Shown here: piece after piece, positions 36,568-53,178 of the stretch
Layout of the letters: each line of letters begins with the position of its first letter
Position numbering within the stretch: position 1 is the stretch's first letter
Notes under the pieces: model-generated
Databases searched by the model: none
The model's input: the letters and a program-made list of their open reading frames with translations, nothing else
Told to the model about the DNA's origin: nothing
Source of the DNA: Microcoleus sp.
GTDB lineage: Bacteria > Cyanobacteriota > Cyanobacteriia > Cyanobacteriales > Microcoleaceae
Direction of reading: 5' to 3'
Length of the DNA stretch: 64,000 nucleotides
Assembly: GCA_042408215.1 (NCBI GenBank)
Contig: JAYFMW010000006.1
Coordinates: 64,001 to 128,000 of the forward strand
Translations under genes and position numbers: made by a program

Positions 36568-36774
36568 CGTAGTAGATTCTCCTGACAATACACTTTTTAC
36601 AAGATAGCTCTAGAATTCCCAAAGACTGGTAATTGTTGCAAAACTCAGTGAAATTTCTGAAAATGTTTGGCCGTCAGGCTTTGATAATTCTTGAATCTCG
36701 AATCTTAAATCTCCTATGGTATTGTAAAACTTCATTAAGATTGTAAGCATCAATAGACAATGGTAGTATCATAT

Positions 36775-36952
36775 AGTCAGAAGGGTCGATTGATTAACGC
36801 CGATGTTAACGGGTCTTACAATATTATGCGAAAAGCAATCCCAAATGCCTTGTGCAATGGGATAGAGAGCTGCGTAGTTCAGCCTTAGAAGGGTCAATCC
36901 GCTCGAAGTGAAAGCGAAAGGGGAGGGACTTCATGCCTCCCACGGCACTGTA
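36775..36952 (+). mobile_element. Orphan tnpB 3' end with omegaRNA-like region
   Basis: Translates GRLINADVNGSYNIMRKAIPNA (RuvC-III), followed by hairpins such as GGGAGG..CCTCCC. The rest of the gene is absent. Confidence 0.65.
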
Positions 36953-37130
36953 ATAAATGACTATACTTTTACCAGCTATGTTGATGTGGCTATTTTATGT
37001 AGGGGACACCTAGTACCAGTCATCGACCTGTGCCAAATGATACAGGGGAGGCGGGCCAGCGCTTATATCAATTCCGGTTGCACCGGAATGATATACTGAA
37101 AGAGCATCAAGAATGCAATGAGGACAATTT

Positions 37131-38209
37131 ATGCCTAAACGCCTAAAGTTGGAACCCCATCAAACCCCGTCGGAGTTGTCTAAACTTGATCGTCAAGCAT
37201 CGGACCCAATTGAACGGACACGCTACCAAATAATTTGGCTCTTAGCAACTGGACGAGTTACTGAAGATGTCGCTTCGGTCACAGGTTACTGCCGTAACTC
37301 GATATACCGCTTAGTCCGTCGTTACAATCAATTAGGTGCTAATGGTTTGAAAGACAAACGTCATCAACATCCGGGTACTCAACCTTTACTCTCTGTTGTA
37401 GAACAAGCACAACTTTTGCAAACTTTACAAGCTCCTCCCGCTGATGGAGGATTATGGAACAGTCGTAAAGTTGCTGAGTGGATGAGTAATTTACTTGACC
37501 GTCGAGTTAGCGTACAAAGGGGTTGGGACTATCTACGCTCCTTGGAGTTTCGGTTACGGATACCCAGACCGGAACATGACCTCGCTGACCTTGAGGTCCA
37601 AGAAGCTTGGAAAAAAAACTACGAGCGCAAGCTAAACGAATTCAAAATCAGCATCCATTAGTAGCAGTAGAAGTATGGGGAATGGATGAGCATCGTCTGG
37701 GATTAAAGCCCATAATTCGGCGAGTCTGGGTAGGGTATGGGGAGCAGCCCATAGCCAACGTAAATTGGCGCTATCAATGGCTATGGTTATATGGTTTTGT
37801 ACACCCGTCAACGGGAGAAACATACTTTTGGATTCTCCCAAAAGTTAACATTGAGCTTTTTAACTTAGTTTTAGAAGACTTTGCCAGAGAATTTGGAGTA
37901 GGTAAAGATCAACACATCATCTTAGCTATTGACCAAGCTGGATGGCATACCAGTCCACAAGTTAGAGTCCCAGAAGGTCTACACTTGGAATTTCTGCCCT
38001 CCCATTCTCCCGAATTACAACCAGCAGAGCGTCTATGGCCGTTGGTAAATGAACCAATTGCCAATCGCTCATTTCAAAATCTTGATGAACTAGAGGAAGT
38101 GCTATTTCAGCGCTGTCAAGCTCTTCTCAAGCAACCTTCTTTGATTAAAGGGATTGCTTGTTTCCATTGGTGGCCAAAAACCAAAGCCATATCATTCCGG
38201 TGCAGTTAG
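37131..38209 (+). CDS. IS630 transposase (HTH ORF plus DDE ORF joined by a probable -1 frameshift)
   Basis: A8 run at 37611-37618 in the ORF overlap. WGMDEHRLG, DQAGWH and PSHSPELQPAERLW DDE motifs. Confidence 0.92.
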
Positions 38210-38982
38210 AGAGTCGATGGCAGAGTGTCCCCCACCATCTCTCCTACAAAACCGTGCTTGCGACTTTCACCGCACACGGCTCCTGAGTGATGTAATCCTG
38301 GTTATGGATACAGTACGATCGCATCACGAGATGATTTATACCGCTTGATAGTTTTCCTTTTACCCCTACATCCCACCATCAGATTTTTCTGTGGCATTAG
38401 GCTTTTAAAGGGTTACTCAGTCTCAATCTTTTACACCACCAGGCGCTGTCAGCAGATCTCTGCTATTACAGCAGAGCTTTAGCTTCTGCAACCATCCCTC
38501 ACACTCACAGCTTACGGCTAGCAACCTACTTATTTTTAAGGGCTGTGAGAGCTTTACTTCGTTCCGATTACACATTGGTTGAACATGACAGCGTAATGCT
38601 TTCCACCGGGTTTTTTGGGCAGTGCTGATAAGTCAATCCGATAATTGCTTATGCCCTATCCTTGCCTTTTGGCTTGGTCTATCAGCCATTTGACCATCTA
38701 TCATAACGGTGGTTCAGACACATTTTTGCTTTCGCTACGCATATGTTCTGGCTCGACAGCTACTCCATTTGGCTAAGAGTCTTTCTGCCTTTTATCCCCG
38801 CTTTATCCTGTTAGTTGCTACCTAACAAAATAGGGGATATGCTTTTACCGCTGCACCTGCGGACTGGGACTTGACTTAACGTCTCACCCAGAAGTGTAAT
38901 CAGTTATCACTAACTCGCAGCGGAGTCAGGCTAACCGTCCCTGGATAGGAGAACCTATCCATTTAGGCTAAACGAATCGCAC
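38205..38982 (-). ncRNA. ORF-less group II intron, 778 nt (IIB-like)
   Basis: Minus strand starts GTGCGATTCG and ends CTCTCTAAC. Domain V GAGCCGTGTGCGGTGAAAGTCGCAAGCACGGTTT and a domain VI hairpin are present. Removing it restores the IS630 TIR precisely. Confidence 0.93.
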
Positions 38983-39145
38983 ACCGGAATTGATATTAGA
39001 TGCTCTATATGTAGCAGGACTTTAAGAAATTGGTATTACTCCGAGGGGGGTTCAGCCCCTGTAGGGGCTAGAAAATGTCTAATGCCCGTTAAGATGCCTT
39101 TATCTAAAAGGGTGGTTAGTCTAATACGGGCAGAGAGGTCAAAAT

Positions 39146-39357
39146 GTAAGGATTCAGGTCACTGAACTCCTTGCTGGGCAAAGACTTTAGATATGGAGCT
39201 TGATACTAAATCAATCTCTATTCTCAATAAACCACGAAAAACTGTCACTTCTCCTCGTTTATTGACAATAAACACGAAAGACAAAAACCCTTATTTTGCC
39301 CTAAAACCCTTGCCAGACAAGCGTTGGAGCCGCAAGTTTTTAGACCTGAATCCTTAC
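39146..39357. mobile_element. MITE-like element with a 15-bp TIR (GTAAGGATTCAGGTC)
   Basis: Perfect TIR at 39146-39160 and 39343-39357. No TSD seen. Confidence 0.65.
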
Positions 39358-39698
39358 GCGCTAAGTTAAGCGCGATACGGCTGATGCCACGCTTAATCAC
39401 AACTATCTACAGCATAATTGTGTAGTAACTGATACTGAAAAGCATAATTCTGCCAAATTGGCAACATGGTCTAGTTAAAAAGGCTTTTAATGATTTTAGA
39501 TAGCCAGACTTATATGTCTAAGTATGTAGGCGGGATTAAACCGAACTACACTACGTAATAGTATATAAACATGGCTAAATCACCTACGTTGTAGAAATTG
39601 AATACTTTAGGCGATCAAAATCCCCTCCAATTTATTCTTAGATGGATGAATTTAAGTTCATAAATCAAGTATTGTTAGTTTTCTAAAAGGAGAGATGA

Positions 39699-40772
39699 AT
39701 GACTGCTCAGATTTTAGATCTTGATTCTCAGTATGTGTTGAATTATTGCACTAAATACCTTGCCAGAGAAAACATAGATTTCAGACATAATTTTGGACAG
39801 TTTGGGAGTGAAGATCCTAGAAGCCATATCGCTGAATCCTGGCGATTTCCCATTATTGATGCCTACAGTGACGGTATAAATTTTACTGCCAATTATGAGT
39901 TCAACCGAGTTACTTTTGTTTATCAAAAACGAAGTGACACATCACCTAAAAGTATTGGGTTGATTGGCACATTTACTACGCTTTATGAACCTATCCCCCT
40001 CAAGTCCGTACAGTTTTTTGGAGAAGATACCGGATACTATGCATTAACGGTTGTTGTGCCCAAAGCCGAAGTTCATCTTTACCAATACCTTATCGATAAT
40101 CAACCAACCCTAGACCCAATTAATCCTCAACAAGTGAGCCTCGATAACGGAAAACCTTGGTCGCGATTTTTTACCCAACTTTGTACCCAGCCCCTCAGCT
40201 TTGAAGATTGGGAATTTGAGATTTTAGAACGACTTATCGATCACATCTTACCGTTTCGGACAGAGGAAGGTGAGAATTTTCTCAGTCGCTACTATCAGTC
40301 TCTAGATCGACAAGCTAAAGAATTACAGTATGCCTATGCCTATCGGTTAGACCAATCAGTAGGTGCAGTTAACTTTATCGACAATATTCTTGCCAGAGAA
40401 GAAAATCATCATTTACTGGATTACAAGCTTTGTTTAATGCAAATTGATCGTATTCTGCGGCAACGTAACCCCTATATCGATCCTGCAAAAATGTCAAAAG
40501 AGCTATACATCGATCTGTATAACGAAATGGCTACCGATAGAGTAAATGGATGGAAGTATGACCAGTACGGCAGTCCACTTTACTTTTTGCAACTACTACG
40601 TCGTCACACTTATACGGGCGCATTCTCTCATCCCAAGTATGGAGGGAATGTAGGTGGATCTGGCTGGGCTTATCTATCCGAACGCTATCGAGATGCTCAA
40701 GGGCAAACCCTGTTTGATTGGCGCAAAGCGATCGAGCAACCTTTGGGAATCAATGCTGACTATCACGGTTGA
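39699..40772 (+). CDS. Gluconate 2-dehydrogenase subunit 3-like protein with an N-terminal CBM48/E-set-like domain
   Basis: VTFVY..IGLIGTF..YQYLID..LDPINP (E-set/CBM48 pattern). LIDHILP..GAVNFID..LRRHTYTGAFSHPKYGGN..GW (Gluconate_2-dh3 pattern). Confidence 0.72.
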   Translation: MTAQILDLDSQYVLNYCTKYLARENIDFRHNFGQFGSEDPRSHIAESWRFPIIDAYSDGINFTANYEFNRVTFVYQKRSDTSPKSIGLIGTFTTLYEPIPLKSVQFFGEDTGYYALTVVVPKAEVHLYQYLIDNQPTLDPINPQQVSLDNGKPWSRFFTQLCTQPLSFEDWEFEILERLIDHILPFRTEEGENFLSRYYQSLDRQAKELQYAYAYRLDQSVGAVNFIDNILAREENHHLLDYKLCLMQIDRILRQRNPYIDPAKMSKELYIDLYNEMATDRVNGWKYDQYGSPLYFLQLLRRHTYTGAFSHPKYGGNVGGSGWAYLSERYRDAQGQTLFDWRKAIEQPLGINADYHG

Positions 40773-40795
40773 TTGACGATTTTTAGGAGTCTTGT

Positions 40796-42640
40796 ATGCA
40801 AATTCAGTTTGATGTAGTGATTATTGGTAGTGGGGCAGGCGGTTCACCCATTGCTCATACGTTGGTGAAAGCGGGCAAATCAGTTCTTATTTTGGAAAAG
40901 GGGCCGTTGTTTAAACCGCAATATCAAACAGCAGATGGCTTGAGTGACTTTAAGCGAGATGAATTATTTGCCGATGGACCAGAAAAGCGAATTCAGTTTA
41001 AAAGCGTCGCCAACTACAACGAATCGTTTTACTCTAGTCATGTCGAGCCGGATATTAATGACGAGCCTCATATTTATCGTGGAGCTGATGGGCGAGATCG
41101 CGCCACGATTGAGGGTTATACCGCTCAAGTTGTTGGCGGTGGGACTCAGCTGTATGGAGGGGTATCGCTGCGATTTACGCCAACCGATCTGCGGCTGCAA
41201 AGTTTTAACGCAGGACGTACAGATTTGAAAGAAGATCCTAATGGAGATGTGCAGAGAGAGGCACGGGATTGGCCTGTGAGTTATGACGAGCTAGAACCCT
41301 ACTATGTAAAAGCAGAAGCCTTAGTAGGGCTAAATGGCACTGTTGAAAATCAGCTCAAGCCCTTTAGTCAAGACAGTTATCAGCCACCTCTGACTCCTAA
41401 CCCGATTAGCAGCTATGCCAAAACGGGGATGGAACAACTCGGTGCAGACCTAGGGAAGGGCAAGCCGATTAAGCCTTATCGGACACCACTAGCCGTGATT
41501 ACTCGCGATCATCCTCCCAGTGGACGCAAGGTGCCCGAGGATTTTGAGACACTCAAAACCAGTTATGTGAATCGATTTGGTTGTCCTTTAGGAGTCAAGT
41601 CGAACACCTGGGTATCCTTACTCAGTCCGATCGCCAATCAACCAAATTTTGAAATCCGCGCCAACTGCGTGGTGACCCATCTAAGTTGTCAGGGATCTCA
41701 GGTAAATCGAGTGTTCTACCGCGATCCTAGTGGTAAGGAGCGATTTGTTGAGGGCAAGGTGGTGGTGGTGGCCTGCTCGGCGATCGAATCAATCCGCTTG
41801 CTCAAGCTATCAGCACAGCTTAGTCCAGATTTTGATCGGCGCATCAATCAAAACGACTTGTTAGGAAAGCATTTTCTCACCCACTGTTTTGGCGGTGCTA
41901 GTGCGCTGATGCCTACCCGTAGCGATAAATCTCAGGCACTAGATGCAGACTGGGCGATCGATTGTTGTGCCACAGAAGGTTTTCTCAAAGATATGGGGCT
42001 GTGGGCTGGGGGGGCAATCTACAACAACACCTCCGACCAAGCTCTACCCATTTCGCTCGCACGAACCCAAGGTGCTCAAGATTTAGACACACTCTGGAAA
42101 GGCTTTATTGGTAACACAAGCTTAACTGGTCAAGCATTAGTAGACTTTTTGGATAAGCAAATCGGCAGGGGTTTATCCGTGAGTTTTATGGCTAATCAGG
42201 TGCCTCTTAAAACGAATCGGATCGAATTACATCCTTCCATTCAGGATAAATGGGGTCGTCCGGTAGCTTACATCATCAAGGAGTGGCACAGTCACGATCG
42301 CTACTTGATGGACACATTAGCCAAACAGTGCGGTCAAGTCCTGAAACTGGGTGGCGAAGGTATCGCGGGTGAGTTTCCGTTTGAGTTTTTAGGCGGAGGT
42401 GGGGTGTACCAAGCCGAGAATGCCCTAGCTCGAATTGCTAACCATATTTTAGGTGGAGCAAGGTTTGGGATTGATCGCAATGACTCGGTGCTCGATCGCA
42501 ACTGTCGAGCTTGGGATTTTGATAATCTCTACGTCACTGATGGATCGTTTATGCCCACATCTGGGGGCGCGAACCCCACTCTGACTATTCAGGCTAATGC
42601 TTTTCGCGTTGCAGACCAGATATTAACTGCCTTACCCTAA
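40796..42640 (+). CDS. GMC family FAD-dependent oxidoreductase
   Basis: VIIGSGAGG, LILEKG, VGGGT, WPVSYDELEPYY, NHILGGARFG, NLYVTDGSFMPTSGGANPTLTI. Confidence 0.93.
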   Translation: MQIQFDVVIIGSGAGGSPIAHTLVKAGKSVLILEKGPLFKPQYQTADGLSDFKRDELFADGPEKRIQFKSVANYNESFYSSHVEPDINDEPHIYRGADGRDRATIEGYTAQVVGGGTQLYGGVSLRFTPTDLRLQSFNAGRTDLKEDPNGDVQREARDWPVSYDELEPYYVKAEALVGLNGTVENQLKPFSQDSYQPPLTPNPISSYAKTGMEQLGADLGKGKPIKPYRTPLAVITRDHPPSGRKVPEDFETLKTSYVNRFGCPLGVKSNTWVSLLSPIANQPNFEIRANCVVTHLSCQGSQVNRVFYRDPSGKERFVEGKVVVVACSAIESIRLLKLSAQLSPDFDRRINQNDLLGKHFLTHCFGGASALMPTRSDKSQALDADWAIDCCATEGFLKDMGLWAGGAIYNNTSDQALPISLARTQGAQDLDTLWKGFIGNTSLTGQALVDFLDKQIGRGLSVSFMANQVPLKTNRIELHPSIQDKWGRPVAYIIKEWHSHDRYLMDTLAKQCGQVLKLGGEGIAGEFPFEFLGGGGVYQAENALARIANHILGGARFGIDRNDSVLDRNCRAWDFDNLYVTDGSFMPTSGGANPTLTIQANAFRVADQILTALP

Positions 42641-42658
42641 ACCAAAGGAGATAAACTC

Positions 42659-43825
42659 ATGGATATAGCTAATCAGAAGATTGCCGATGGTAAGTTTAAT
42701 GATCGATTCACCGCGCCTTGGAATGAAATTTTTAAGGTCGTTTTTTTCCCAGACCGAATTTATCATGCGGAATATCTGAATGCAACCCGAAGTGCTCGCT
42801 ATCGTTATAACGTGCAGGAAGTTAGAAACTACCTAGATATTAATGTTATTAAGGGAGAAGTTTACCTAGACGGGCAATTTCTCACTAACTTTCTGCGATT
42901 GGAATATACATCGAAACGTCTTGTCGAGCAGGCTCGTGGAAAAAATCGGTTTATCAAGAACAGTGTAATTGCCTGGGTTAAATTGCTACCCATCAACTCT
43001 CAGAATATCGCTGAAGCTAGGGTAAAACTTAACTATTGCCCTTGGATTGATGCCTACCAAGTTGAAATTTGGGAGACTTTAGAGCCTCCAGGGACTACCC
43101 ACCACGATTTCCAAATTTTGGATCAAATGGGACGCGAAGGGTCAATTACGCGAGTAGGGGCATTTAATCCTGCACTGCGTGCAGTTAAGGCGATCAAGCA
43201 GGTAGAACTAGCGTTTAGAGAAAATGATCGGAATTTGCCCACTGGGTATCCAGTTAGCGATGACCAAGCTTGCTGGGACAATGCCTACTTGCGATCGCAC
43301 CAGGAGCCACGCACCCAAGACCCTAGCTCTTCCCAAAATACCATCTTGGATCAAAACTACCTGATCGATTTCCAGCGAGGTTGGTTTTTACAGGCATCAG
43401 ATATTTTACCCGTACGTTACCGCAATGCGATGATGGACGACACTAACCCTGACATCAAGGATGACAACATCATTGAAATGCGATGGATTATACAGCGAGA
43501 ATTGGGTGGTTCAAATATCTTTTTCCATGAGGTCACTATTCCACCAGGCACAGTAGAAGGAACTCATCAGCATATCGGTACCGAAGAACTCTACTACATC
43601 ACTCAAGGCGAGGGGATTGCATACATGCGTGTTGGTGACGATCCTGCTACAGATTCTTTCCCAACCGTCACTCGGAATGTTATGGGACTGGGCGAACGCG
43701 ACTTTAAAAAGCTTCCGGTCAAGGCAGGGAGTGTCATTTTCACTAAAAGCGGCGGAATGCATGGTATCAGCAATCCTGGTACCGAACCACTGAAATTTGT
43801 AGCGTTTTTGTATCACACTTCTTGA
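42659..43825 (+). CDS. Cupin domain protein with a large N-terminal extension
   Basis: C-terminal EGTHQHIGTEELYYITQGEG...GGMHGISNPG. Confidence 0.85.
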   Translation: MDIANQKIADGKFNDRFTAPWNEIFKVVFFPDRIYHAEYLNATRSARYRYNVQEVRNYLDINVIKGEVYLDGQFLTNFLRLEYTSKRLVEQARGKNRFIKNSVIAWVKLLPINSQNIAEARVKLNYCPWIDAYQVEIWETLEPPGTTHHDFQILDQMGREGSITRVGAFNPALRAVKAIKQVELAFRENDRNLPTGYPVSDDQACWDNAYLRSHQEPRTQDPSSSQNTILDQNYLIDFQRGWFLQASDILPVRYRNAMMDDTNPDIKDDNIIEMRWIIQRELGGSNIFFHEVTIPPGTVEGTHQHIGTEELYYITQGEGIAYMRVGDDPATDSFPTVTRNVMGLGERDFKKLPVKAGSVIFTKSGGMHGISNPGTEPLKFVAFLYHTS

Positions 43826-43855
43826 CCTTATTTTCCCTTTTTACCAAGAATTACC

Positions 43856-45106
43856 ATGTTTATAGTTCACTCTGATAATGTCTTTAAAGTTGAACCAAAT
43901 ACTTCCCCAGACTACAACCGAAGTAATCCATTAATGAAACTTCTGGGACTGCTCGAAAAAGCACAACTTGCTGCCCAACGAGACTTTTACCTTGCCGATC
44001 AACTTCAGTATCTCTTTCCTTTTAAATCCCTGATTTCGTGGGGACCTCAGGGATTAGACGCTGATAATCTAACTCCTGAAAAGCAGGATAACAAAAACGA
44101 TTTTCAAAAGCAAAACGTCAAGGATTTTGAGACCACCGATACTGTGTTAATTCGGGGATTGGTCAACGTTGGTGGCTGGACGGGACCTTTTTTGCGCGTC
44201 TCCTATCGAGGCGGTCCCGATTCTAAACTTTCGGTGGCAGCTAACCACCAGCTTGGGGAAAGTATCAAACTCTTCATTAAGATTGCTGGAGTACCATCAA
44301 CCACCCTGATTACGGTGCCCTACAATCCACTTAGCGCTCGCTATGAAGTTGAATTCTGGGGCTACCCTGGTAACGACCTTAGAAGTCAGCTTGATGGGAA
44401 AAGCCTAATAGCCTTTGATCGAGGTGAACTCCAAGTACGAACAGATTTAGTCCATGGAAGCATTTCAGACTTTAGTCGAGAAAAACTTGATGGGCGTACA
44501 ATGGTCGAAGTTTCCCCTACTAATACCATGCATCCGGTTCTCCCTCTGCATATTGAGCTTGCTTGGACTACCACAGATACAAAAGTATGGGACTCGCAAG
44601 ACAGTGCTAATTACCACTATGAATTTAATATGATTTTAAGGGGGTGGGAACACTTTTTAGGAACAGGCATTAGTCCTAATCCTCATGGTGGCATTGGTTT
44701 TCTAGAATATCGTAACCTAATGTCTAACTACTTTCAGCATGCCAAAAATAATGAACTGGGACGACCACTTAACCCTTGGAGCTTCAATGCTTTTGGCTCA
44801 AAGAACCATGGTAATGGCTTCGAGCCATTTTTTGCAGTGGATTATATGGATATCCATCTACTAAAGGGTAACTGTGGAATTGGATTACACCGCCACCGCG
44901 ATAACCAAGAAGTATTTTTGATGATGGAAGGGAAGGGATTTATGGTGATCGGAGATTGGTGCAAGATGCCCGAACGCGAGCGTTGTTTTGAAATCAGAAC
45001 CCTTCGGTCTGGACATTTTGCCATGTTGAAGGGTGGCAATCTCCATGCCCTCATGAATGCAACGGATGAAGATATTTCTCTGTTCATGTTTGGAGGGTAT
45101 GACTAA
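43856..45106 (+). CDS. Cupin domain protein with a large N-terminal extension
   Basis: C-terminal IGLHRHRDNQEVFLMMEGKG...GGNLHALMN. Confidence 0.85.
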   Translation: MFIVHSDNVFKVEPNTSPDYNRSNPLMKLLGLLEKAQLAAQRDFYLADQLQYLFPFKSLISWGPQGLDADNLTPEKQDNKNDFQKQNVKDFETTDTVLIRGLVNVGGWTGPFLRVSYRGGPDSKLSVAANHQLGESIKLFIKIAGVPSTTLITVPYNPLSARYEVEFWGYPGNDLRSQLDGKSLIAFDRGELQVRTDLVHGSISDFSREKLDGRTMVEVSPTNTMHPVLPLHIELAWTTTDTKVWDSQDSANYHYEFNMILRGWEHFLGTGISPNPHGGIGFLEYRNLMSNYFQHAKNNELGRPLNPWSFNAFGSKNHGNGFEPFFAVDYMDIHLLKGNCGIGLHRHRDNQEVFLMMEGKGFMVIGDWCKMPERERCFEIRTLRSGHFAMLKGGNLHALMNATDEDISLFMFGGYD

Positions 45107-45185
45107 GCGAATTCATGTACAAATTGGACTCAGACTTTGAAACAGTGAGAGTCATTTACTAATTGCAAATAGAGAGGTATTTATT

Positions 45186-47006
45186 GTGGCTTCTTCTCAG
45201 TCCGGTATGGGAGCAATCCCTTTTTCAGGTGGTGTGGCATTTCGTGTCTGGGCACCTAACGTCGATGGTGTTAGTGTTGCAGGTGACTTTAACGGTTGGT
45301 CTTCTTCAGCTCACTCGTTAGACTCGGAAGGTAATGGATTCTGGTCTGCTGATGTACCTGTGGCAAAAATAGACCAGCAGTATAAGTTTGTTATTCATGA
45401 GGGAACTAACCCACCGATCTTTAAAAATGATCCCTATGCTAGAGATGTTGTCAGTTCAGTCGGCAACTCGATTATTGTTGATTTGAACTTTAACTGGTTA
45501 CCCACCAGTTTTTCGATGCCAACATGGAATGAATTGATTATCTATGAAATGCATGTGGGTACTTTTAATGATGATATTGACCCTGGGTTAGGAACTTTTC
45601 GGAGTATTAAGGCTAAGCTGCCTGATTTGCAGGCACTTGGAATCAATGCCATTCATGTGATGCCAGCAGCGGAGTTCCCTGGCGATTTGTCTTGGGGATA
45701 TAATCCATCCCATCCCTTTGCGATCGAGAGCGTGTTTGGTCCACCTAAAGACCTTAAGGAATTTGTCCAAACTGCTCATGATTTTGGAATTGCCATAATT
45801 ATGGATGTGGTTTTTAACCACTTCGGTGGTAATGATCTTGATTTGTGGCGATTTACAAGTTGGAACCAGAATGATAAAGGAGGCATTTACTTCTACAACG
45901 ATCGTCGAGATTTTACGCCTTGGGGACCTCGCCCCGATTACGGACGTGGAGAAGTACGCCAATACATCCGGGATAATGTTTGGATGTGGCTAGAAGAATA
46001 TCGTTGTGATGGACTGCGTTTTGATGCGACTGCCTTTATCCGCAATATTTTTGGCAACAATAATGATCCTGCCAATGATATCCCTGAAGGCTGGAACTTG
46101 ATGCAATGGCTTAACGATGAGATTAATTCTCGGCAATCTTGGAAAATTACAATTGCAGAAGACATAAGAAATAATGATTGGATCACTAAGGATGTAGGAG
46201 CAGGGGGAGCCGGCTTTGATGCCCAATGGGCAACAGAATTTGTCCGACCAATTAGAGATACACTTACCACCCCCAACGATCAAGATCGAAATATGTTTGC
46301 TGTTCGAGATGCCATTTATCATCGCTATGGCACGGATGCTTTTGAGCGAATCATTTATACTGAATCTCATGATGAAGTCGCTCGTTCGCTGAATCTACAA
46401 GAAAGACCCGACCATTATCGACTTCCAGAAGCAATCTGGCGAGGTCATGCAGATAGTTGGTTTGCTAGAAAGCGTTCAACTCTTGGGACTGCATTACTTT
46501 TTACAACTCCAGGAATCCCCATGATTTTTCAAGGGCAGGAGCTTTTAGAATGGGGAAGCTGGGATGATAAAACCCCCTTAGATTGGAGCAAAAAAAACCG
46601 ATTTAGTGGAATTTGGGATCTCTATCAGGCACTAATTCGCTTACGGCGTAACTGGTTTAACAATACTCGTGGACTTCGTGGCCAACATGTAAACGTATAC
46701 CATGTCAACAATAACGATAAAGTTATTGCTTTCCATCGTTGGGAAAATGGTGGACCGGGCGATGATGTAATTGTGGTGCTGAATTTTAGCGATCGCAATT
46801 ATAGCAGCTATACGATTGGATTCCCTCGGGGTGGAACTTGGTATATTCGTTTTAATAGCGATTGGCAAGGTTTTAGCTCAGACTTCGGAAACTTCCCAGG
46901 CTATAACACTACAGCCGATAGAGCAATATGGGGAGACACTGATGGATTAACTTTTGCAGGTAATGTAGGAATTGGTGCTTATAGTGCTCTTATACTTTCC
47001 CAGTAA
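45186..47006 (+). CDS. GH13 alpha-amylase family enzyme (CBM48-GH13; TreZ/GlgB-like)
   Basis: FRVWAPN, IYEMHVGTF, SWGYNP and catalytic regions DGLRFDA, IAED and ESHDE intact. GTG start after an AGAGG RBS. Confidence 0.92.
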   Translation: MASSQSGMGAIPFSGGVAFRVWAPNVDGVSVAGDFNGWSSSAHSLDSEGNGFWSADVPVAKIDQQYKFVIHEGTNPPIFKNDPYARDVVSSVGNSIIVDLNFNWLPTSFSMPTWNELIIYEMHVGTFNDDIDPGLGTFRSIKAKLPDLQALGINAIHVMPAAEFPGDLSWGYNPSHPFAIESVFGPPKDLKEFVQTAHDFGIAIIMDVVFNHFGGNDLDLWRFTSWNQNDKGGIYFYNDRRDFTPWGPRPDYGRGEVRQYIRDNVWMWLEEYRCDGLRFDATAFIRNIFGNNNDPANDIPEGWNLMQWLNDEINSRQSWKITIAEDIRNNDWITKDVGAGGAGFDAQWATEFVRPIRDTLTTPNDQDRNMFAVRDAIYHRYGTDAFERIIYTESHDEVARSLNLQERPDHYRLPEAIWRGHADSWFARKRSTLGTALLFTTPGIPMIFQGQELLEWGSWDDKTPLDWSKKNRFSGIWDLYQALIRLRRNWFNNTRGLRGQHVNVYHVNNNDKVIAFHRWENGGPGDDVIVVLNFSDRNYSSYTIGFPRGGTWYIRFNSDWQGFSSDFGNFPGYNTTADRAIWGDTDGLTFAGNVGIGAYSALILSQ

Positions 47007-47078
47007 TCCAATGAAACGGATAATCAAACAAATTCGGGAAATTGCCGCAAGCTAACCAGGCGTTGGAGCCGACCGATG

Positions 47079-47213
47079 ATATCAAATCCGGTAGCATCGG
47101 AATTAATATTACCCACAGCCAGGGACAAGACAGTCGTGTCCCTACAATTAATCGCGGTAGGGACACGACTGCCTTGTCACTCTATATTATTCCGGTGCAA
47201 CCGGAATTGATAT
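47079..47213. mobile_element. MITE with IS630-type TIRs enclosing two REP hairpins
   Basis: ATATCAAATCCGGTAGCATCGGAATTAATAT ... ATATTATTCCGGTGCAACCGGAATTGATAT, closely matching the TIR at 37065. Confidence 0.8.
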
Positions 47214-47291
47214 TACTCGATCGCGCGAATTGTTCTAGTCAAAAAATGATTGTCCGATCGCGCCGATCATTCCCCGGACTTGAGATCAACC

Positions 47292-48581
47292 CTACAAAAC
47301 CTTTGTCAAGTCTTGATAATATCGATCGGCTTCCGACCAATTCATTTTAAGTAACAATTCATCTCCCCATTGCAGTTTGAGACTAGGCTTGATTGCTTCC
47401 ACACCCAAAGCACGAATAATCTCGCTACCCACAGCTTTCGCCAATAGCGGCGGCACAGAATTTCCAACTTGTCGAAATCCATGCCATTTTGTGCGGTGAA
47501 ATCTGAACCAATCAGGGTAAGAATGCAGCCGCGCGGCTTCCCTGACAGTGATGCAGCGAGGTGTTTGCGGGTGAATTGGTCTGGGAGAAGTAAAAGCGCC
47601 TCTACCCCTGTCAGTTCCGGCTCTGAGAGTGTTGCAAACTCCTTCAGGATGCAGCTTGTAAAAACGACTGATCGGCTCCTTTTCGCCCTGTGGAGTAGCA
47701 GCAAACCTTGCCATACATTCGGGGGAGTGTTGGGTTCGCCAACTTGAGGTGAGGATGCGTCGATCGAATTCTCGATCGTAAGAATAATCATCATCCAAGT
47801 AGTCAATTTGGCGCAGGATACTGGCGTAACTGCTGGACTTTCCGTACTCGGCAATTATCGAATCCCCGTACAATAACTCGCTATAGTTGTCCACTTCTGG
47901 CAAATCTCCAATGGCATCCCAAACTGTCGGGACCGCAGGTAAATTAGGAGCTTTTTTAGGGCGTTTTAAAATTTTAGTTTTTGCCTTCGCTCTGGGTAAG
48001 AAAGTAATGGGCTGAGGGTATTTTGGCAACTCATATTTTTTCTTGCATCCTATGAGAAATAATCTTTTGCGAGCTTGGGGTACTCCGTAGTGAGCGGCGT
48101 TGAGAACCTGATATTTTTCTTCTACTTGATAGCCGGATTCTAGAAAAGAGCTAATTAAAATATTGAGTAGTTGTTTATGTTCTCCTGCTGTGATTCCCGG
48201 CACATTTTCCATTACAAAAAACTTGGGTTTTAGTTCCAAAACCAAGCGGTGAAAGTGAAAAATCAGAGAATTTCGCGGGTCATCCACATCGCGCTTGCCC
48301 ATCAGTGAAAATCCTTGACAGGGCGAACCGCTGATTACTACGTCTATTTCGCGCCTGCCGATCGCCGAATTTTTCCGAATTTCCGAGCCGGTAAGCAGTG
48401 CCACATCTTTACACAAAATAGAACACATCGGGAAATTAAACTCGTGGGTAGCACAGTGAATTGGGTCAATTTCAACAGAAGCAAGTACATCAAAACCTGC
48501 TTGTTCAAAGCCCAGAGTCATGCCGCCGGCACCAGCAAATAAATCAACAGCGATCGGTCGCTTTTTCCGATTGCTTGACAT
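47292..48581 (-). CDS. Orphan C5 DNA cytosine methyltransferase
   Basis: DLFAGAGG, GSPCQGFS, MENV, QARKR, TVREAARL, QVGNSVPP. No adjacent restriction endonuclease. Confidence 0.95.
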   Translation of the reverse strand: MSSNRKKRPIAVDLFAGAGGMTLGFEQAGFDVLASVEIDPIHCATHEFNFPMCSILCKDVALLTGSEIRKNSAIGRREIDVVISGSPCQGFSLMGKRDVDDPRNSLIFHFHRLVLELKPKFFVMENVPGITAGEHKQLLNILISSFLESGYQVEEKYQVLNAAHYGVPQARKRLFLIGCKKKYELPKYPQPITFLPRAKAKTKILKRPKKAPNLPAVPTVWDAIGDLPEVDNYSELLYGDSIIAEYGKSSSYASILRQIDYLDDDYSYDREFDRRILTSSWRTQHSPECMARFAATPQGEKEPISRFYKLHPEGVCNTLRAGTDRGRGAFTSPRPIHPQTPRCITVREAARLHSYPDWFRFHRTKWHGFRQVGNSVPPLLAKAVGSEIIRALGVEAIKPSLKLQWGDELLLKMNWSEADRYYQDLTKVL

Positions 48582-48604
48582 AACCTTTTATCACTAAATA
48601 TATT

Positions 48605-49777
48605 TTAATTTGCTCTGTTTAATTTGAGATATTTCATGATTTCTGAAGCCGCGCGATCGCAGACGCCCACTTCTCCCAAATGTTCCCGCATTTCCCGATA
48701 ACCAGCTAAAGTTTGCTGCCGTCGATCGGCATTTAACAGCAATTCTACGGCGTGGGAAACTAGATTTTCCGCAGTCGCCTCATCTTGCAGTAATTCCGGT
48801 ACGATCGACTTCATTTGCACCAAATTGGGCGGGGACATAAAAGGAATCGAAAATTTGAGGATATGGCGGGCAATCCAAGCTGTAAGTGGACTGACACGGT
48901 AGGCGACAACTTGCGGAACGTCCAGCAAAGCTATCTCCAAATTAACAGTACCAGATTTAGTAATAGCGAGATCGGCAGCAGCTAAGATTTCCAGCGTTTG
49001 ATTGTCTAAAAGGGTAGCCCGCAAGCCATAATGCTCGATCGCCCGTTCGATCGCGCCGCGGTATACTTCCAGAGCCAGCGGAATCCAGAAATGAACTTGA
49101 GGCAATTTAGCTTGAATAATTTGAGCAGCCTCAAATATGACAGGCATCAGGTAGGACAGTTCTTGGCGTCTAGAGGCGGGAATTAGGGCGATAGACACCT
49201 GTTCCGGCGTAATTCCCAAAGTTTTGCGGGCAACTTCGCGGCTGGGCGCAGACTGCATTCTATCCACCAATGGATGACCAACCCAACTGACTTGAGCGCC
49301 TTTTTTTTCAAAATAACGAGCTTCTTCGGGAAAAATTGCTAATATGCGATCGCAAATATTGACAATCAAAGAAGTATTGCGAGGAGAAAGCGACCAAACC
49401 CACTCTTGAGGAGCAATGAACCAAAGCACAGGTAGCGAAGGCAAACAGCGGCGGATGTAGCTACCAATACCAAGATTTGGAGTTAAATAATCAATCAATA
49501 CAACCGCATCGGGAGGGAATTGTTTCAAGTATTCTTTAGCTTTTTGCTGAACTTTTATAGTTGGCCAAATATACGGCAGTGATTCTATAATTCCCATCGA
49601 ACCAATGCCCACAGTATCGGCTAAAATAGTAGCGCCAGCTTCCGCCATCCGCAGGCCGCCCAATCCGACAATTTCTAACTCTAAACCAGCGGCCACAGCT
49701 TGACGTTTTAGGGCATCAACTAACAAAGCCCCTTGCAAATCGCCAGAAACCTCACCAGTGCTAATAAAAATTTTCAT
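48605..49777 (-). CDS. lpxB: Lipid-A-disaccharide synthase
   Basis: MKIFISTGEVSGDLQG (likely start 49777), APQEWVW, VGHPL, KSGTVNLE. Confidence 0.95.
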   Translation of the reverse strand: MKIFISTGEVSGDLQGALLVDALKRQAVAAGLELEIVGLGGLRMAEAGATILADTVGIGSMGIIESLPYIWPTIKVQQKAKEYLKQFPPDAVVLIDYLTPNLGIGSYIRRCLPSLPVLWFIAPQEWVWSLSPRNTSLIVNICDRILAIFPEEARYFEKKGAQVSWVGHPLVDRMQSAPSREVARKTLGITPEQVSIALIPASRRQELSYLMPVIFEAAQIIQAKLPQVHFWIPLALEVYRGAIERAIEHYGLRATLLDNQTLEILAAADLAITKSGTVNLEIALLDVPQVVAYRVSPLTAWIARHILKFSIPFMSPPNLVQMKSIVPELLQDEATAENLVSHAVELLLNADRRQQTLAGYREMREHLGEVGVCDRAASEIMKYLKLNRAN

Positions 49778-49969
49778 AAAATCCTCAATATCCTCGGTAA
49801 GGTGCGTCATAAAAAAACTGTTTGAGCTGAGTCAAGGCTTAAAACTGACGCACCCTACAGCTTCCTTCTTTTTCTTTTTCTTCTTCTACCTCTTCCTTCG
49901 TGTCATAAGCGTCTTCGCGGTTCAATAATCCTAATTCTTCAGACCCGAAAGAAGTAATATAAGCCTCAT

Positions 49970-50764
49970 TCACTTTTTCCCAGGAATCAAGCCGCGTCGA
50001 GGTTTAGTGACAGACTCTTGTACAAATGTCCGCAGGTGCTGCAAGTGGGGGTTTTCCGGCAATAAATCCAACTGTTCCAAAGCTTGATTTAGGGTATAGC
50101 CCGATCGATATAGAATCCGAAAAGTCTTCTTCAACAGTTCTAAATCTTCTGCTGTCAAACCAGCGCGTTGCAGACCAATTTTGTTAAGCGATCGCACTCT
50201 GGAAGGATTGCCCTCGACTAACATATAAGGAGGGACATCTCGATCGATTCTGCTCAAGCCGCCCACCATAGACAAGCGGCCGATATGCACAAACTGGTGA
50301 ACCCCCAAAACACCGCTCAATCGAGCCTGAGACTCGATCTTAACGTGTCCGGCCAAAGCCACAGCATTAGCAATAATTACTTGATCGGCGATCGAACAAT
50401 TGTGACCCACATGAACATAAGCCATCAATAAATTATGATTGCCGATCGTCGTGCTTTCCCCAGGTTGAGTAGCCCGATTAATTGTCACATATTCCCGAAT
50501 CAAATTATCATCGCCAATATTCACCCTAGTTAGAGAACCCTGATACTTTAAATCTTGAGGTTCCAAACCAATAGCCGCACCGGGAAAAATTTGATTGCGA
50601 GCGCCTATTTCTGTTAGCCCATCAATAATTGCATGAGCACCAATCTTAGTTTGTGGCCCGATTTTAACTCTTTCCCCAATTACAGCATAAGCTCCCACTT
50701 CTACAGTCGAGTGAAGTTCAGCGCGGGGATGAATCACAGCAGTTGGGTGAATCAAAGTAAGCAT
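49970..50764 (-). CDS. lpxA: Acyl-ACP--UDP-N-acetylglucosamine O-acyltransferase
   Basis: IHPTAVI hexapeptide repeats, PQDLKY, IREYVTINRAT, HVGHNC. Confidence 0.96.
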   Translation of the reverse strand: MLTLIHPTAVIHPRAELHSTVEVGAYAVIGERVKIGPQTKIGAHAIIDGLTEIGARNQIFPGAAIGLEPQDLKYQGSLTRVNIGDDNLIREYVTINRATQPGESTTIGNHNLLMAYVHVGHNCSIADQVIIANAVALAGHVKIESQARLSGVLGVHQFVHIGRLSMVGGLSRIDRDVPPYMLVEGNPSRVRSLNKIGLQRAGLTAEDLELLKKTFRILYRSGYTLNQALEQLDLLPENPHLQHLRTFVQESVTKPRRGLIPGKK

Positions 50765-50769
50765 TTGTT

Positions 50770-51010
50770 ATTAGTCAGTAGTCAGTAGTCAGTAGTCATT
50801 AGTCAGTAGTCATTAGTCATTAGTCAGTAGTCAGTAGTCAGTAGTCATTAGTCAGTAGTCAGTAGTCAGTAGTCATTAGTCAGTAGTCATTAGTCAGTAG
50901 TCATTAGTCAGTTGGCTGTTATTAGCTGCTAATTAGTCATTACGAATTAGCCATGCCCAATTCCCAATTCCCACTTCCCAATTCCCAATTCCCAATTCCC
51001 AATTCCCAAT
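50770..51010. repeat. STRR tracts (AGTCAGT/AGTCATT and CCCAATT)
   Basis: Tandem heptamers fill the fabZ-lpxA spacer. Confidence 0.9.
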
Positions 51011-51532
51011 TTAATCTACCATCGAAAACATCAATTCCCCTTCACAAGCTTTTTGGCCGTTAACTTCAGCGCGAGCCTGCATTTTTCCGAAGCGGCGGCG
51101 TTTTACCCACAGCAATTCTACAGTCATCAGCAACTGATCTCCTGGTACAACCGGACGGCGGAACTTAACTTGATCGATCCCAGCAAACATCCACAATCCT
51201 TTGTCTATATCCGGCAATTGACTGAGAACAATACCACCAACTTGAGCCATCGCTTCTACAATCAATACTCCAGGCATAATTGGCCTTCCTGGAAAATGCC
51301 CTTGAAAATGTGGTTCGTTGAAAGTCACATTTTTAATTCCTACCGCCCGCACTCCAGGCACATAATCAATAATTTTGTCTACCAGTGCAAAAGGATAGCG
51401 GTGAGGCAATAATTTCTGAATTTCTTCCACAGTAAAAGTGGATTTAACTATTGCAGAATCCCGCTCGTTCTCGGTTTTAACGGATTCAGAATCAGCAGTA
51501 TTGATGGTGTTAACTTCAGTCAGCGTGGACAT
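51011..51532 (-). CDS. fabZ: 3-hydroxyacyl-ACP dehydratase
   Basis: [43 protein letters not shown]. Confidence 0.97.
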
Positions 51533-51688
51533 TTCTTGAATATTTTTGAGTGTGGTAAAAACGCGAGGAATCGCGTGTTGGATTGTGAATCTGGTGAACC
51601 CTACAGCCCGCCTGGGGTTGAAACCCCTTGCTAATAGCTAAAGTCCACTGAAAGTGGACTGCAATCTTAACGGATCACCTGTTTTTTT

Positions 51689-52553
51689 CTAACTTGTCTC
51701 TAGCGTTGCTAGAGCTTGCGAGTTCAGGGCTAAGCCCAGTTGGACATGGAGGTTGTGACTGGCTTTGTAAGCCACGTAGTGAGCTGTTGGCCAAGTTCCC
51801 AGCAGACTGAGATCGCCTACTAAGTCTAGGATTTTATGGCGCACTGGTTCATTGGCAAATCTCAAGGGCGGGTTGAGCCAGCCGGAGCGATCGCAAACTA
51901 AGGCGTTATCTAGGCTACCACCTTTGATCAAACCTGCTTGTCGCAATTGGTCAACTTGGCGGGCCAGTCCAAAAGTCCGAGCCGGGGCGATCGCACTTAC
52001 AAAACTTTCTACCTCTGGCGACCAACTGTACCACTGATTGCCGATCGCGGGTTCATCAAAATCAATTCCGTAGCTAAACCGAGTTTCCGCAGCAGGTAAA
52101 GCGGCCACAAAAGCATCACCATGACGCACCCAAACGGGATTGAGAACCGGGGAATTTAGCCCGTTTTCTGCTGGGTGTACCAATTCTTGGGCGACTAATC
52201 CCACACGGGCGATCGCCTCCACCCAAACCAGGGCAGAACCGTCCATTAGAGGCACTTCCGGGCCATCAACCTCAATTCGAGCATTATCCGCCCCCATGCC
52301 CGCCAAAGCCGCTAATAGATGCTCTACAGTGCGGATTTGAGCATCAGCCGCACCCAGCCAGTTCCGTCGAAAGAGCAGTCTGACAAACCGCCTCAATTTT
52401 TGCAGGAATGATCGGAGCACCGGGCAAGTCAATTCTGACAAAATAGCGACCTTCCCCAACTGCCGCGGGCAACACTCGGACGCGAGTCTGTTCGCCGCTG
52501 TGCAAACCGATTCCCGACAGTTCAAATTCAGATGCTAGAGTACGTTGAATCAT
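51689..52553 (-). CDS. lpxC: UDP-3-O-acyl-GlcNAc deacetylase, with a 1-bp frameshift (probable sequence error)
   Basis: MIQRTL..GIGLHSG in one frame. TVEHLLAAL and [11 protein letters not shown] in the next. The shift is near 52353. Confidence 0.9.
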
Positions 52554-53178
52554 GAGTCAGTAGTCAGTAGTCAGTAGTCAGTAGTCATTAGTCATTAGTC
52601 AGTAGTCAGTAGTCATGAGTCAGTGGTCAGTGGTCAGTGGTTAGTGGTCATTAGTCAGTAGTCAGTGGTTAGTGGTCATTAGTCAGTGGTCAGTGGTCAG
52701 TGGTCAGTGGTTAATGGTCAGTGGTTAGTGGTCAGTAGTCAGTAGCCAGTGGTTAGTGGTTAGTGGTTAGTGGTCATTGGTCAGTAGTCAGTAGCCAGTA
52801 GTCATATCGTTGACCGTTGCATCGGAATTATTTAACCGCAGAGAACACAGAGGACACAGAGGGAGAGAATAGAGATCTGAATACAGGAGGATGCTACCGG
52901 ATTTGATATCGGTGGTTAGTGGTCAGTGGTCAGTGGTTAGTGGTTAGTGGTTAGTGACTAATAACTAATGACTAATAACTACTGACTAATGACTACTGAC
53001 TAATGACTACTGACTACTGACTAATAACTACTGACTACTGACTAATGACTAATGACTAATGACTAATGACTACTGACTACTGACTAATGACTAATGACTA
53101 ATGACTAATGACTAATGACTACTGACTACTGACTAATGACTAATGACTACTGACTACTGACTAATGACTAATGACTAA
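52553..53178. repeat. Long STRR region with inverted halves and a central IS630-type MITE (52804-52909)
   Basis: AGTCAGT/AGTGGTC units, then GACTAAT/GACTACT units. The MITE ends in GATGCTACCGGATTTGATAT. Confidence 0.85.

Follow-up and report, generated by a model that had tools for sequence, protein, structure and literature searches.

The 64,000-nucleotide stretch of a Microcoleus sp. genome analyzed here (contig JAYFMW010000006.1, positions 64,001 to 128,000 of the forward strand; hereafter the window) carries at positions 39699-47006 a cassette of five open reading frames (ORFs). The conserved unit within it consists of four genes, not five: orf1, which encodes a protein with a Gluconate_2-dh3 domain, a gene for a GMC flavoprotein, and two cupin genes, cupA and cupB; the fifth gene, encoding a GH13 enzyme, is an exchangeable member. 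The cassette is real, conserved and apparently undescribed. We put at about one in two the probability that the four-gene core oxidizes alpha-glucosyl units in the cytoplasm, giving a keto sugar on which the cupins then catalyze an elimination and a hydration or isomerization; the substrate, the position oxidized, the electron acceptor and the chemistry of the cupins are what we infer from the sequences. The five genes are as follows (aa, amino acids; CBM, carbohydrate-binding module; AMPK, AMP-activated protein kinase; Ig, immunoglobulin):

39699..40772, + strand: orf1, 357 aa; degenerate AMPK-type CBM48-like module (~aa 83-160) and Gluconate_2-dh3 domain (174-324)
40796..42640, + strand: GMC flavoprotein, 614 aa; related to B. 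cepacia glucose dehydrogenase (BcGDH) and fructose dehydrogenase (FDH)
42659..43825, + strand: cupA, 388 aa; N-terminal beta domain and C-terminal cupin
43856..45106, + strand: cupB, 416 aa; Ig-like domain (~93-258), then cupin; whole-length paralog of cupA
45186..47006, + strand: GH13, 606 aa; CBM48 and catalytic domain; exchangeable cassette member

All five ORFs are intact and run in one direction, separated by 23, 18, 30 and 79 bp, as an earlier description made from the letters alone (the sequence-only reading) had it. Its remark that most of the genes have clear ribosome-binding sites was borne out by AGGAG/AGAGG-type sites upstream of four of the five, cupB being the one without a clear site. 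A Pfam scan identified Gluconate_2-dh3 in orf1 (E 1e-7), GMC_oxred_N and GMC_oxred_C in the second gene, a C-terminal Cupin_2 in both cupA and cupB (the cupB score being below the cut-off), and CBM48, alpha-amylase and C-domain in the fifth gene; no protein of the operon reached an NCBIfam equivalog. The four core genes are single copy in the host genome, which possesses separate GlgB-, TreZ- and TreS-like GH13 genes (labels from motifs and lengths).

A search of GTDB with a cupB alignment yielded 231 loci, of which the best 80 were fetched, and a metagenome search with a divergent cupA alignment yielded 169 loci, of which 80 were taken; both sets contain closely related loci, 19 of the GTDB ones coming from Nostocales, so the counts are not independent. 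Judged by their titles, the GTDB loci span about 12 phyla, and the groups with the cassette are cyanobacteria, Chloroflexota, alpha-, beta- and gamma-proteobacteria, Acidobacteriota, Planctomycetota, Verrucomicrobiota, Myxococcota, Desulfobacterota, Actinomycetota, Bacillota, Bacteroidota and Gemmatimonadota. The cupA gene precedes cupB in all 80 GTDB loci, and the order orf1-GMC-cupA-cupB is retained in 67 of the 68 loci having at least 4.3 kb upstream, the sole exception (L084) being a damaged copy without the GMC gene. Within the metagenome set, the GMC gene is upstream in 68/68 loci, orf1 in 50/50, and cupB is downstream in 67/68. Such a gene order across phyla is far beyond chance. Minimum identities over 45 loci (with the Nostocales cut to one) were 40% for orf1, 56% for the GMC protein, 47% for cupA and 46% for cupB; the correlations of pairwise distances between core genes, 0.44-0.64, are no test of co-evolution.

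The alpha-glucan link that had been proposed for the cluster is supported by the gene next to the core. A GH13 gene adjoins it in 61 of the 80 GTDB loci (some as fragments) and in 41 of the 47 metagenome loci with room for one, mostly less than 300 bp downstream. Six non-orthologous types, no more than 24-34% identical to one another, make up the GTDB copies: 23 are of the GlgB/TreZ-like type seen in the window and 19 of another GlgB/TreZ-like type, and the others are GlgX-like (14), Pseudomonas-type isoamylase (2), alpha-amylase (2) and TreS-like (1). Co-occurrence in other genomes, on which the five-gene proposal depended, therefore stands for orf1-GMC-cupA-cupB and fails for the GH13, which comes in these six types and is absent from 19 of the 80 loci. 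Alpha-1,4/1,6-glucan enzymes have been recruited next to the core repeatedly and independently. When the neighbors at 161 loci were clustered, no other glycoside-hydrolase family recurred, nor did any transporter, regulator, kinase or cytochrome. The GH13 slot has been exchanged separately from the core, since the window GH13 is 85% identical to that of genome G098 whereas the core genes of the same pair are 58-69% identical; window-type GH13 without the core was found in 4 of 301 genomes. The full D-E-D triad reported for the window enzyme was located at D280/E325/D396 and is kept in all full-length copies aligned, and its NCBIfam scores met neither the GlgB cut-off (249 versus 577 bits) nor that of TreZ (242 versus 539). 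At L095:9833-13566 (genome G242), an unrelated GMC gene overlaps the start of a window-type GH13, and neither cupins nor orf1 are present; this GMC has a 110-aa N-terminal extension that has no Pfam match and is similar to the N-domain of the esterases encoded at L025:13696 and L052:3696. It is possibly a second, independent GMC and GH13 pairing.

The best solved matches of the GMC protein in profile searches were BcGDH (E 2e-42) and FDH (E 1e-34). The His/Asn active-site motifs ascribed to it are present as His550 and Asn593, conserved in 51 of 51 aligned orthologs, and they correspond to the pair described as catalytic in the glycoside 3-oxidase PsG3Ox (PMC10646112). In the GDH and FDH complexes, as set out in PMC9727119, a cytochrome c subunit receives its electrons from a 3Fe-4S cluster, and the small subunit hitch-hikes on the twin-arginine translocation (Tat) pathway. 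In the cassette protein, the 3Fe-4S Cys stretch is replaced by K-T-x-Y-V-N-R-Y-G-(D/C)-P, and the aligned region 254-263 has a Cys at position 263 only (Cys in 12 and Asp in 39 of the 51 orthologs). No Tat motif was found in orf1 (0/66) or the other core proteins (0 of 68, 72 and 79), and a gene for a cytochrome c subunit is absent both from the window operon and from the recurrent neighbors at the 161 loci. Because the 3Fe-4S cysteines, the Tat signal and the cytochrome gene are all missing, the GMC protein is not part of a BcGDH-type respiratory complex; it is probably an active, soluble carbohydrate oxidoreductase detached from the respiratory chain. What had been described as a GMC and Gluconate_2-dh3 dehydrogenase pair does possess both domains, but the Fe-S relay is lost and the pair cannot work like the periplasmic dehydrogenases. 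The statement that none of the proteins has a signal peptide agrees with the Tat result and with a crude hydrophobicity scan, and the cytoplasmic location is supported for the four-gene core.

Outside the cassette, the best GMC among 66 PLSDB records with a match was WP_019863610.1 of M. loti (31% identity, E 1e-48), which has the same Cys-less G-DPxG signature and a small subunit, WP_019863611.1, without a Tat signal. Its operon encodes ROK, a TIM barrel (AP_endonuc_2), a sugar ATP-binding cassette (ABC) importer and Gfo/Idh/MocA, and this layout resembles 3-keto-glycoside pathways, a likeness that is suggestive only. The two GMC genes most closely related to the M. loti one, from Arthrobacter and S. 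fredii, likewise lie behind sugar ABC genes and have other partners, which are, judging from ORF starts without a Pfam scan, aldo-keto-reductase-like or a short-chain dehydrogenase/reductase and a kinase. The Cys-less GMC/Gluconate_2-dh3 pairs in these sugar ABC operons of Mesorhizobium (L182:1526-9848, NZ_CP016080.1), Arthrobacter (L193) and S. fredii (L194) look like soluble sugar oxidoreductases. We know of no characterization of the M. loti cluster or of the Cys-less GMC/2-dh3 branch. Seven other outside GMC loci that were opened had varied contexts.

The sequence-only reading had described orf1 as a CBM48-like module fused to a dehydrogenase small subunit. The Gluconate_2-dh3 half of that description stands; the CBM48-like half was not detected in the window protein, and the canonical Trp pair is missing. 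A total of 42 out of 51 orthologs matched AMPK1_CBM at E<=0.1 (best 3.8e-9), the window's own protein giving no match. The two Trp residues of AMPK-type CBM48 modules stack on glucan; in orf1, the first of these positions is Leu in 49/51 orthologs, and the region of the second has a Trp in 5/51. The module may be structural.

Both cupins possess the metal site claimed for them, with complete His3-Glu sets of ligands at H303/H305/E310/H368 in cupA (invariant in 57/57) and at H345/H347/E352/H397 in cupB (invariant in 56/56). Additional invariant residues are E309, Y312 and Y385 of cupA, and D349 and the C-terminal D416 of cupB. The two proteins align over 282 columns (hhalign probability 97.4, E 1e-11), and since this whole-length alignment includes the N-terminal domain, cupA and cupB represent one duplicated gene. 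The family is narrow: a profile search among 1.84 billion representatives gave 60 matches at E<=1e-30, mostly fragments, and in addition a few divergent full-length proteins. Four divergent full-length cupA relatives (P0128, P0130, P0133 and P0183), 25-44% identical to P0133, have kept the metal motif. A search for cupA fusions gave one match among 2062 candidates (P0124), a frameshifted read-through from GMC into cupA that was rejected as an artefact.

The degree of conservation bears on whether the cupins are enzymes at all. All four proteins are highly conserved and their C-terminal residues are invariant, which suggests a tight complex, and the cupins could be subunits without catalysis, serving for binding or as a scaffold in an assembly on glycogen whose only chemistry is flavin oxidation. 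We consider this highly improbable, as both metal sites and the extra acidic and aromatic residues are invariant as well, and loss of a site is possible but rare, as evidenced by one divergent copy (L100) that has lost one of the two. In that copy (L100:5226-10017) the core is highly diverged (23-37% identity) with its order unchanged, the fourth gene is without the cupin His motif and the GMC protein has HH at the catalytic His; the sequence suggests a core that is decaying or repurposed.

Structure models were obtained with pLDDT (predicted local distance difference test) values of 88 for cupA and 72 for cupB. The cupA model matched 111 chains at Z>=8, in lists filled by cupin-domain matches, and these included TM1287 (Z 16.1), KdgF (12.8), phosphomannose isomerase (12.0), DddK (11.7) and CelOCE (10.9). 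Foldseek returned nothing for the cupB model at E<=0.001, and the ESM Atlas returned generic cupin clusters only (0.85 for cupA, 0.76 for the cupB N-domain), which is uninformative. CelOCE (9BWF), a copper enzyme with a jelly-roll fold, cuts cellulose by means of H2O2 generated in situ (PMC11946906). Like the cassette cupins it is a jelly-roll metal enzyme, and it acts on a glucan; it is also one of many fold matches, a protein of only 115 residues whose substrate is cellulose, and no specific sequence or structural affinity with them was seen. The presence of CelOCE among the matches, together with BcGDH as the closest solved GMC, would fit a scheme in which the GMC protein is a C1 oxidase that supplies H2O2, with which the CBM-bearing cupins, as CelOCE-like peroxygenases, cut alpha-glucan. 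We judge such a scheme improbable, given that CelOCE is 25th in the cupA ranking and not set apart from unrelated cupins, that a copper/peroxide enzyme is unlikely in the cytoplasm, and that Mn, Fe, Ni or Zn is the more usual metal at a His3-Glu site.

The best matches of the modeled Ig-like domain of cupB were CBM56 (Z 7.4), CBM25 (6.4) and CBM21 (5.2), along with amylase N-domains, all in a middling range. When a 41-column cupB profile of the motif WDSxxGxNY was compared with the PDB, five of the eight rows were protein phosphatase 1 (PP1) regulatory (glycogen-targeting) subunits or beta/alpha-amylase domains (E 0.14-0.28), and Pfam assigned CBM_21 to 4/59 and CBM_25 to 1/59 of the cupB N-domains. 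The motif is nearly invariant in this protein (W245 in 55/56, D246 in 56/56), and cupA has WDN at the matching place. These lines of evidence are weak and concordant; the cupin Ig domain may be CBM21/25-like and bind glucan.

It is also conceivable that the core oxidizes and rearranges some other small sugar or glycoside, such as a compatible solute, a polyol or an acarbose-type pseudo-sugar, with the GH13 as a helpful and dispensable neighbor. The loci without a GH13, the GH13 copies without a core, the secreted GH13s at three loci, the sister Cys-less GMCs in sugar-import operons and the lack of the Trp pair in the orf1 module would all agree with such a role. We nevertheless hold it to be unlikely, because the six GH13 types were recruited independently and no other glycoside-hydrolase family recurs, because CBM-like modules occur in three of the four core proteins, and because no transporter accompanies the core.

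The reading that we favor, an alpha-glucan oxidation followed by cupin chemistry, would proceed as follows. Among the hosts of the cassette are cyanobacteria, Nitrosospira and Methylomonas, bacteria that build glycogen stores instead of taking sugar up. A GH13 of any type would trim or debranch glycogen or maltodextrin to produce chain ends or small alpha-glucosides, and the GMC protein, stabilized by orf1, would oxidize a ring hydroxyl to a ketone, most likely at C3. With the Fe-S cluster, Tat export and cytochrome gone, the reduced flavin (FADH2) would be reoxidized either by O2 or by the keto sugar that the reaction yields. By the keto-sugar route the net reaction would be a redox-neutral, non-Koshland cleavage, and such recycling of the flavin would explain why no reductase or acceptor, kinase or transporter is conserved. 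Lastly, cupA and cupB would bind the keto sugar at the His3-Glu metal for a beta-elimination, and then a hydration or isomerization; in known 3-keto pathways, elimination and hydration are the jobs of TIM-barrel and DUF1080 enzymes. The lyases of those pathways work with a divalent metal at the keto group. In the AL/BT pathway 3-ketoglucose can recycle the oxidant and malto-oligosaccharides are degraded from the non-reducing end together with endo-enzymes, according to the account in bioRxiv 10.1101/2024.03.25.586180.

The only repeated metabolic extra among the neighboring genes is a zeta-crystallin/PIG3-type medium-chain dehydrogenase/reductase (MDR) of the NADPH quinone/enone-reductase type, found in Nostoc and at seven other loci; it forms two clades across phyla (50-62% identity) and is present again beside the S. 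rimosus copy. These reductases fit an enone intermediate, in favor of the reading above. They could also serve self-protection if the GH13 freed glucose or maltose, the GMC protein with O2 oxidized C2 to give glucosone, and the cupins dehydrated and isomerized this to a reactive pyranone for defense or as an antioxidant. The core would then be a bacterial analog of the fungal route to cortalcerone and microthecin through pyranose oxidase and aldos-2-ulose dehydratase, an enzyme that has cupin domains. A patchy, mobile, self-contained cassette without a link to central metabolism would suit such a product, and loss of the Fe-S relay fits an oxidase. We find this alternative doubtful: aldos-2-ulose dehydratase was outside the top 50 structural matches of cupA (cupin matches being not discriminating), pyranose oxidases ranked under BcGDH and FDH in the GMC profile search, and no exporter is conserved. 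The fungal glucosone/anhydrofructose pathway (the pyranose 2-oxidase, or P2Ox, and dehydratase route is cited in PMC11650716) shares with our proposed scheme a storage glucan, a GMC oxidation and a cupin-type dehydration or isomerization; it differs in that the cassette GMC is not of the P2Ox type (no covalent-His motif, low rank), no propeller domain was seen, and the cassette holds no glucan lyase.

Several observations weigh against the alpha-glucan oxidation that we favor. PsG3Ox stands much lower than BcGDH in the GMC profile ranking (E 4e-10 versus 2e-42); the closest solved relatives are glucose and fructose dehydrogenases rather than 3-oxidases, and glucose dehydrogenase oxidizes at C1. 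The TIM/Gfo layout was found in only one of three Cys-less sister-group loci, and the GMC tree with outgroups gave long-branch warnings and did not place the M. loti enzyme as starred sister. The modeled cupA fold matches isomerases, lyases and oxidases alike and is not discriminating, and the CBM assignments are weak overall (E 0.03-0.3; Z 5-7). The GH13 is lacking at the 19 loci mentioned above, several of which are short contigs, and GH13 copies of types D and E in L026, L028 and L029 have signal-peptide-like N-termini, so the GH13 need not share the compartment of the core. Finally, there is no evident need for a non-hydrolytic route in the case of glycogen.

Among known systems, the heterotrimeric GDH of B. 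cepacia (6A2U/8HDD) and FDH of Gluconobacter (7W2J) resemble the cassette in having a GMC subunit with a Gluconate_2-dh3 small subunit encoded just upstream; unlike them, the cassette has no 3Fe-4S cysteines, Tat hitch-hiker signal or cytochrome c gene, its small subunit is fused to a CBM48-like module, and two cupins follow. Glucoside 3-dehydrogenase clusters belong to the non-Koshland 3-keto-glycoside pathways. With these pathways (BT2156-2160/AL1-4, and G3Ox with CarB/CarC-type deglycosidases) the cassette shares the arrangement of an oxidoreductase followed by two divalent-metal enzymes and the PsG3Ox-type His/Asn pair, and its nearest outside GMC is in a TIM-barrel/Gfo operon. In contrast, the core has two Ig-cupins of a different fold in place of a TIM barrel, DUF1080 or Gfo, is without a transporter and is tied to GH13 glucan enzymes; TIM-barrel lyase, DUF1080 and Gfo/Idh/MocA genes were not recurrent at the 161 loci, single cases being Gfo in L059 and UxuA/TIM in L044. 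The M. loti pair and its Arthrobacter and S. fredii relatives share the G-DPxG in place of the Fe-S motif and the sugar context, but they are only 31% identical, are linked to ABC importers, and have no cupins or GH13 that we could see. As read here, the cassette works like the GMC-initiated keto-sugar pathways and is a member neither of the heterotrimeric dehydrogenases nor of the TIM/DUF1080 clusters. The earlier statement that no characterized pathway has this composition agrees with the full-text literature, in which no description was found, most subscription papers and supplements being outside the scope.

The cassette of the window is an insertion. Two further features define it:

36700..47310, no strand: insertion, approximate extent, between a BON-domain gene and a dcm methylase gene
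37131..38209, + strand: IS630-type transposase, two ORFs (helix-turn-helix and DDE_3), inside the inserted segment

Of 24 congener loci retrieved with the downstream methylase gene as anchor, 20 show the site empty, the BON/DUF4278 region (to ~36700) falling within the 1.5 kb flank, which means that about 10.6 kb, the IS630 element and the operon, is missing from these congeners. No cupA was found in 78 other genomes of the genus, and the five genomes of the phylum (out of 301) that have a full-length cupB, the host's own among them, are also the five with orf1; one further genome has a cupB fragment only (100 aa). The GC content of the inserted segment is like that of the host. Two plasmid records, from Streptomyces rimosus and Microvirga, carry the cassette. 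A bolder idea, which is tentative and to which we give well below even odds, is that a mobile, glycogen-docked complex shared across phyla, made up of a flavoenzyme uncoupled from respiration and a new family of CBM-cupin lyases, turns the storage glucan of its own cell into a reactive keto sugar or pyranone for defense or stress protection. Neither hydrolysis nor phosphorolysis would take part, and the complex would constitute a third route of bacterial glycogen breakdown. PADLOC anti-phage models gave no match for orf1, cupA or cupB, the only matches being of the Rossmann-motif and GlgB type.

A scan for promoters and terminators was uninformative (19 sites versus 17.6 expected and 6 versus 8.5 expected). 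Eighteen rows of RNA runs from seven studies contain part of the window, and four were compared, all as contigs. In one of them (X3), contigs covered all five genes with flank depth near zero, and one contig joined orf1 to the GMC gene; because DNA carry-over or a relative with different flanks would explain these contigs equally well, they were not counted as a sign of transcription or of an operon transcript.

Other observations were made along the way. The two transposase ORFs at 37131-38209 overlap, and metatranscriptome contigs hold internally deleted copies of the element (skipping 37464-37902). Short dispersed repeats at 47050-47215 and 50790-51000, where the RNA runs show very high contig depth and numerous joints, are probably mobile or repetitive-extragenic-palindromic (REP)-like elements. 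At positions 47292-55609, a C5 cytosine methylase gene lies immediately downstream of lpxB-lpxA-fabZ-lpxC-bamA-like genes, an arrangement conserved in 40/40 congeners searched; the ORF list suggests that lpxC and bamA are split or carry a frameshift. L009:1341-12744 and other Nostoc loci have a GlgA-like glycosyltransferase family 4 (GT4) gene, a GH13 and an NADPH quinone-reductase-like gene upstream of the core, and a gene for a cyanophycinase-like S51 protein downstream; the GT4 and cyanophycinase-like neighbors are essentially Nostoc-only and were not counted as parts of the system. A core-less GH13 in L096 also adjoins an S51 gene. At L098:1830-4615, a GH13-less core is followed about 3 kb downstream, on the same strand, by a gene for a DyP-type peroxidase and another, unknown, of 419 aa.

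Bacterial glycogen breakdown is thought to run by phosphorolysis and hydrolysis. A four-protein unit with six recruited glucan enzymes in about 12 phyla points to an unrecognized oxidative branch of this process, and culturable carriers exist among Nostoc strains, Streptomyces rimosus, Microvirga sp. VF16 (JO965_RS45560-45580) and Bradyrhizobium. If the proposed reading is true, the cupins would join the enzymes able to carry out keto-glycoside elimination, and a soluble, Fe-S-free branch of the GDH/FDH flavoenzymes would be defined that is of interest for biocatalysis.

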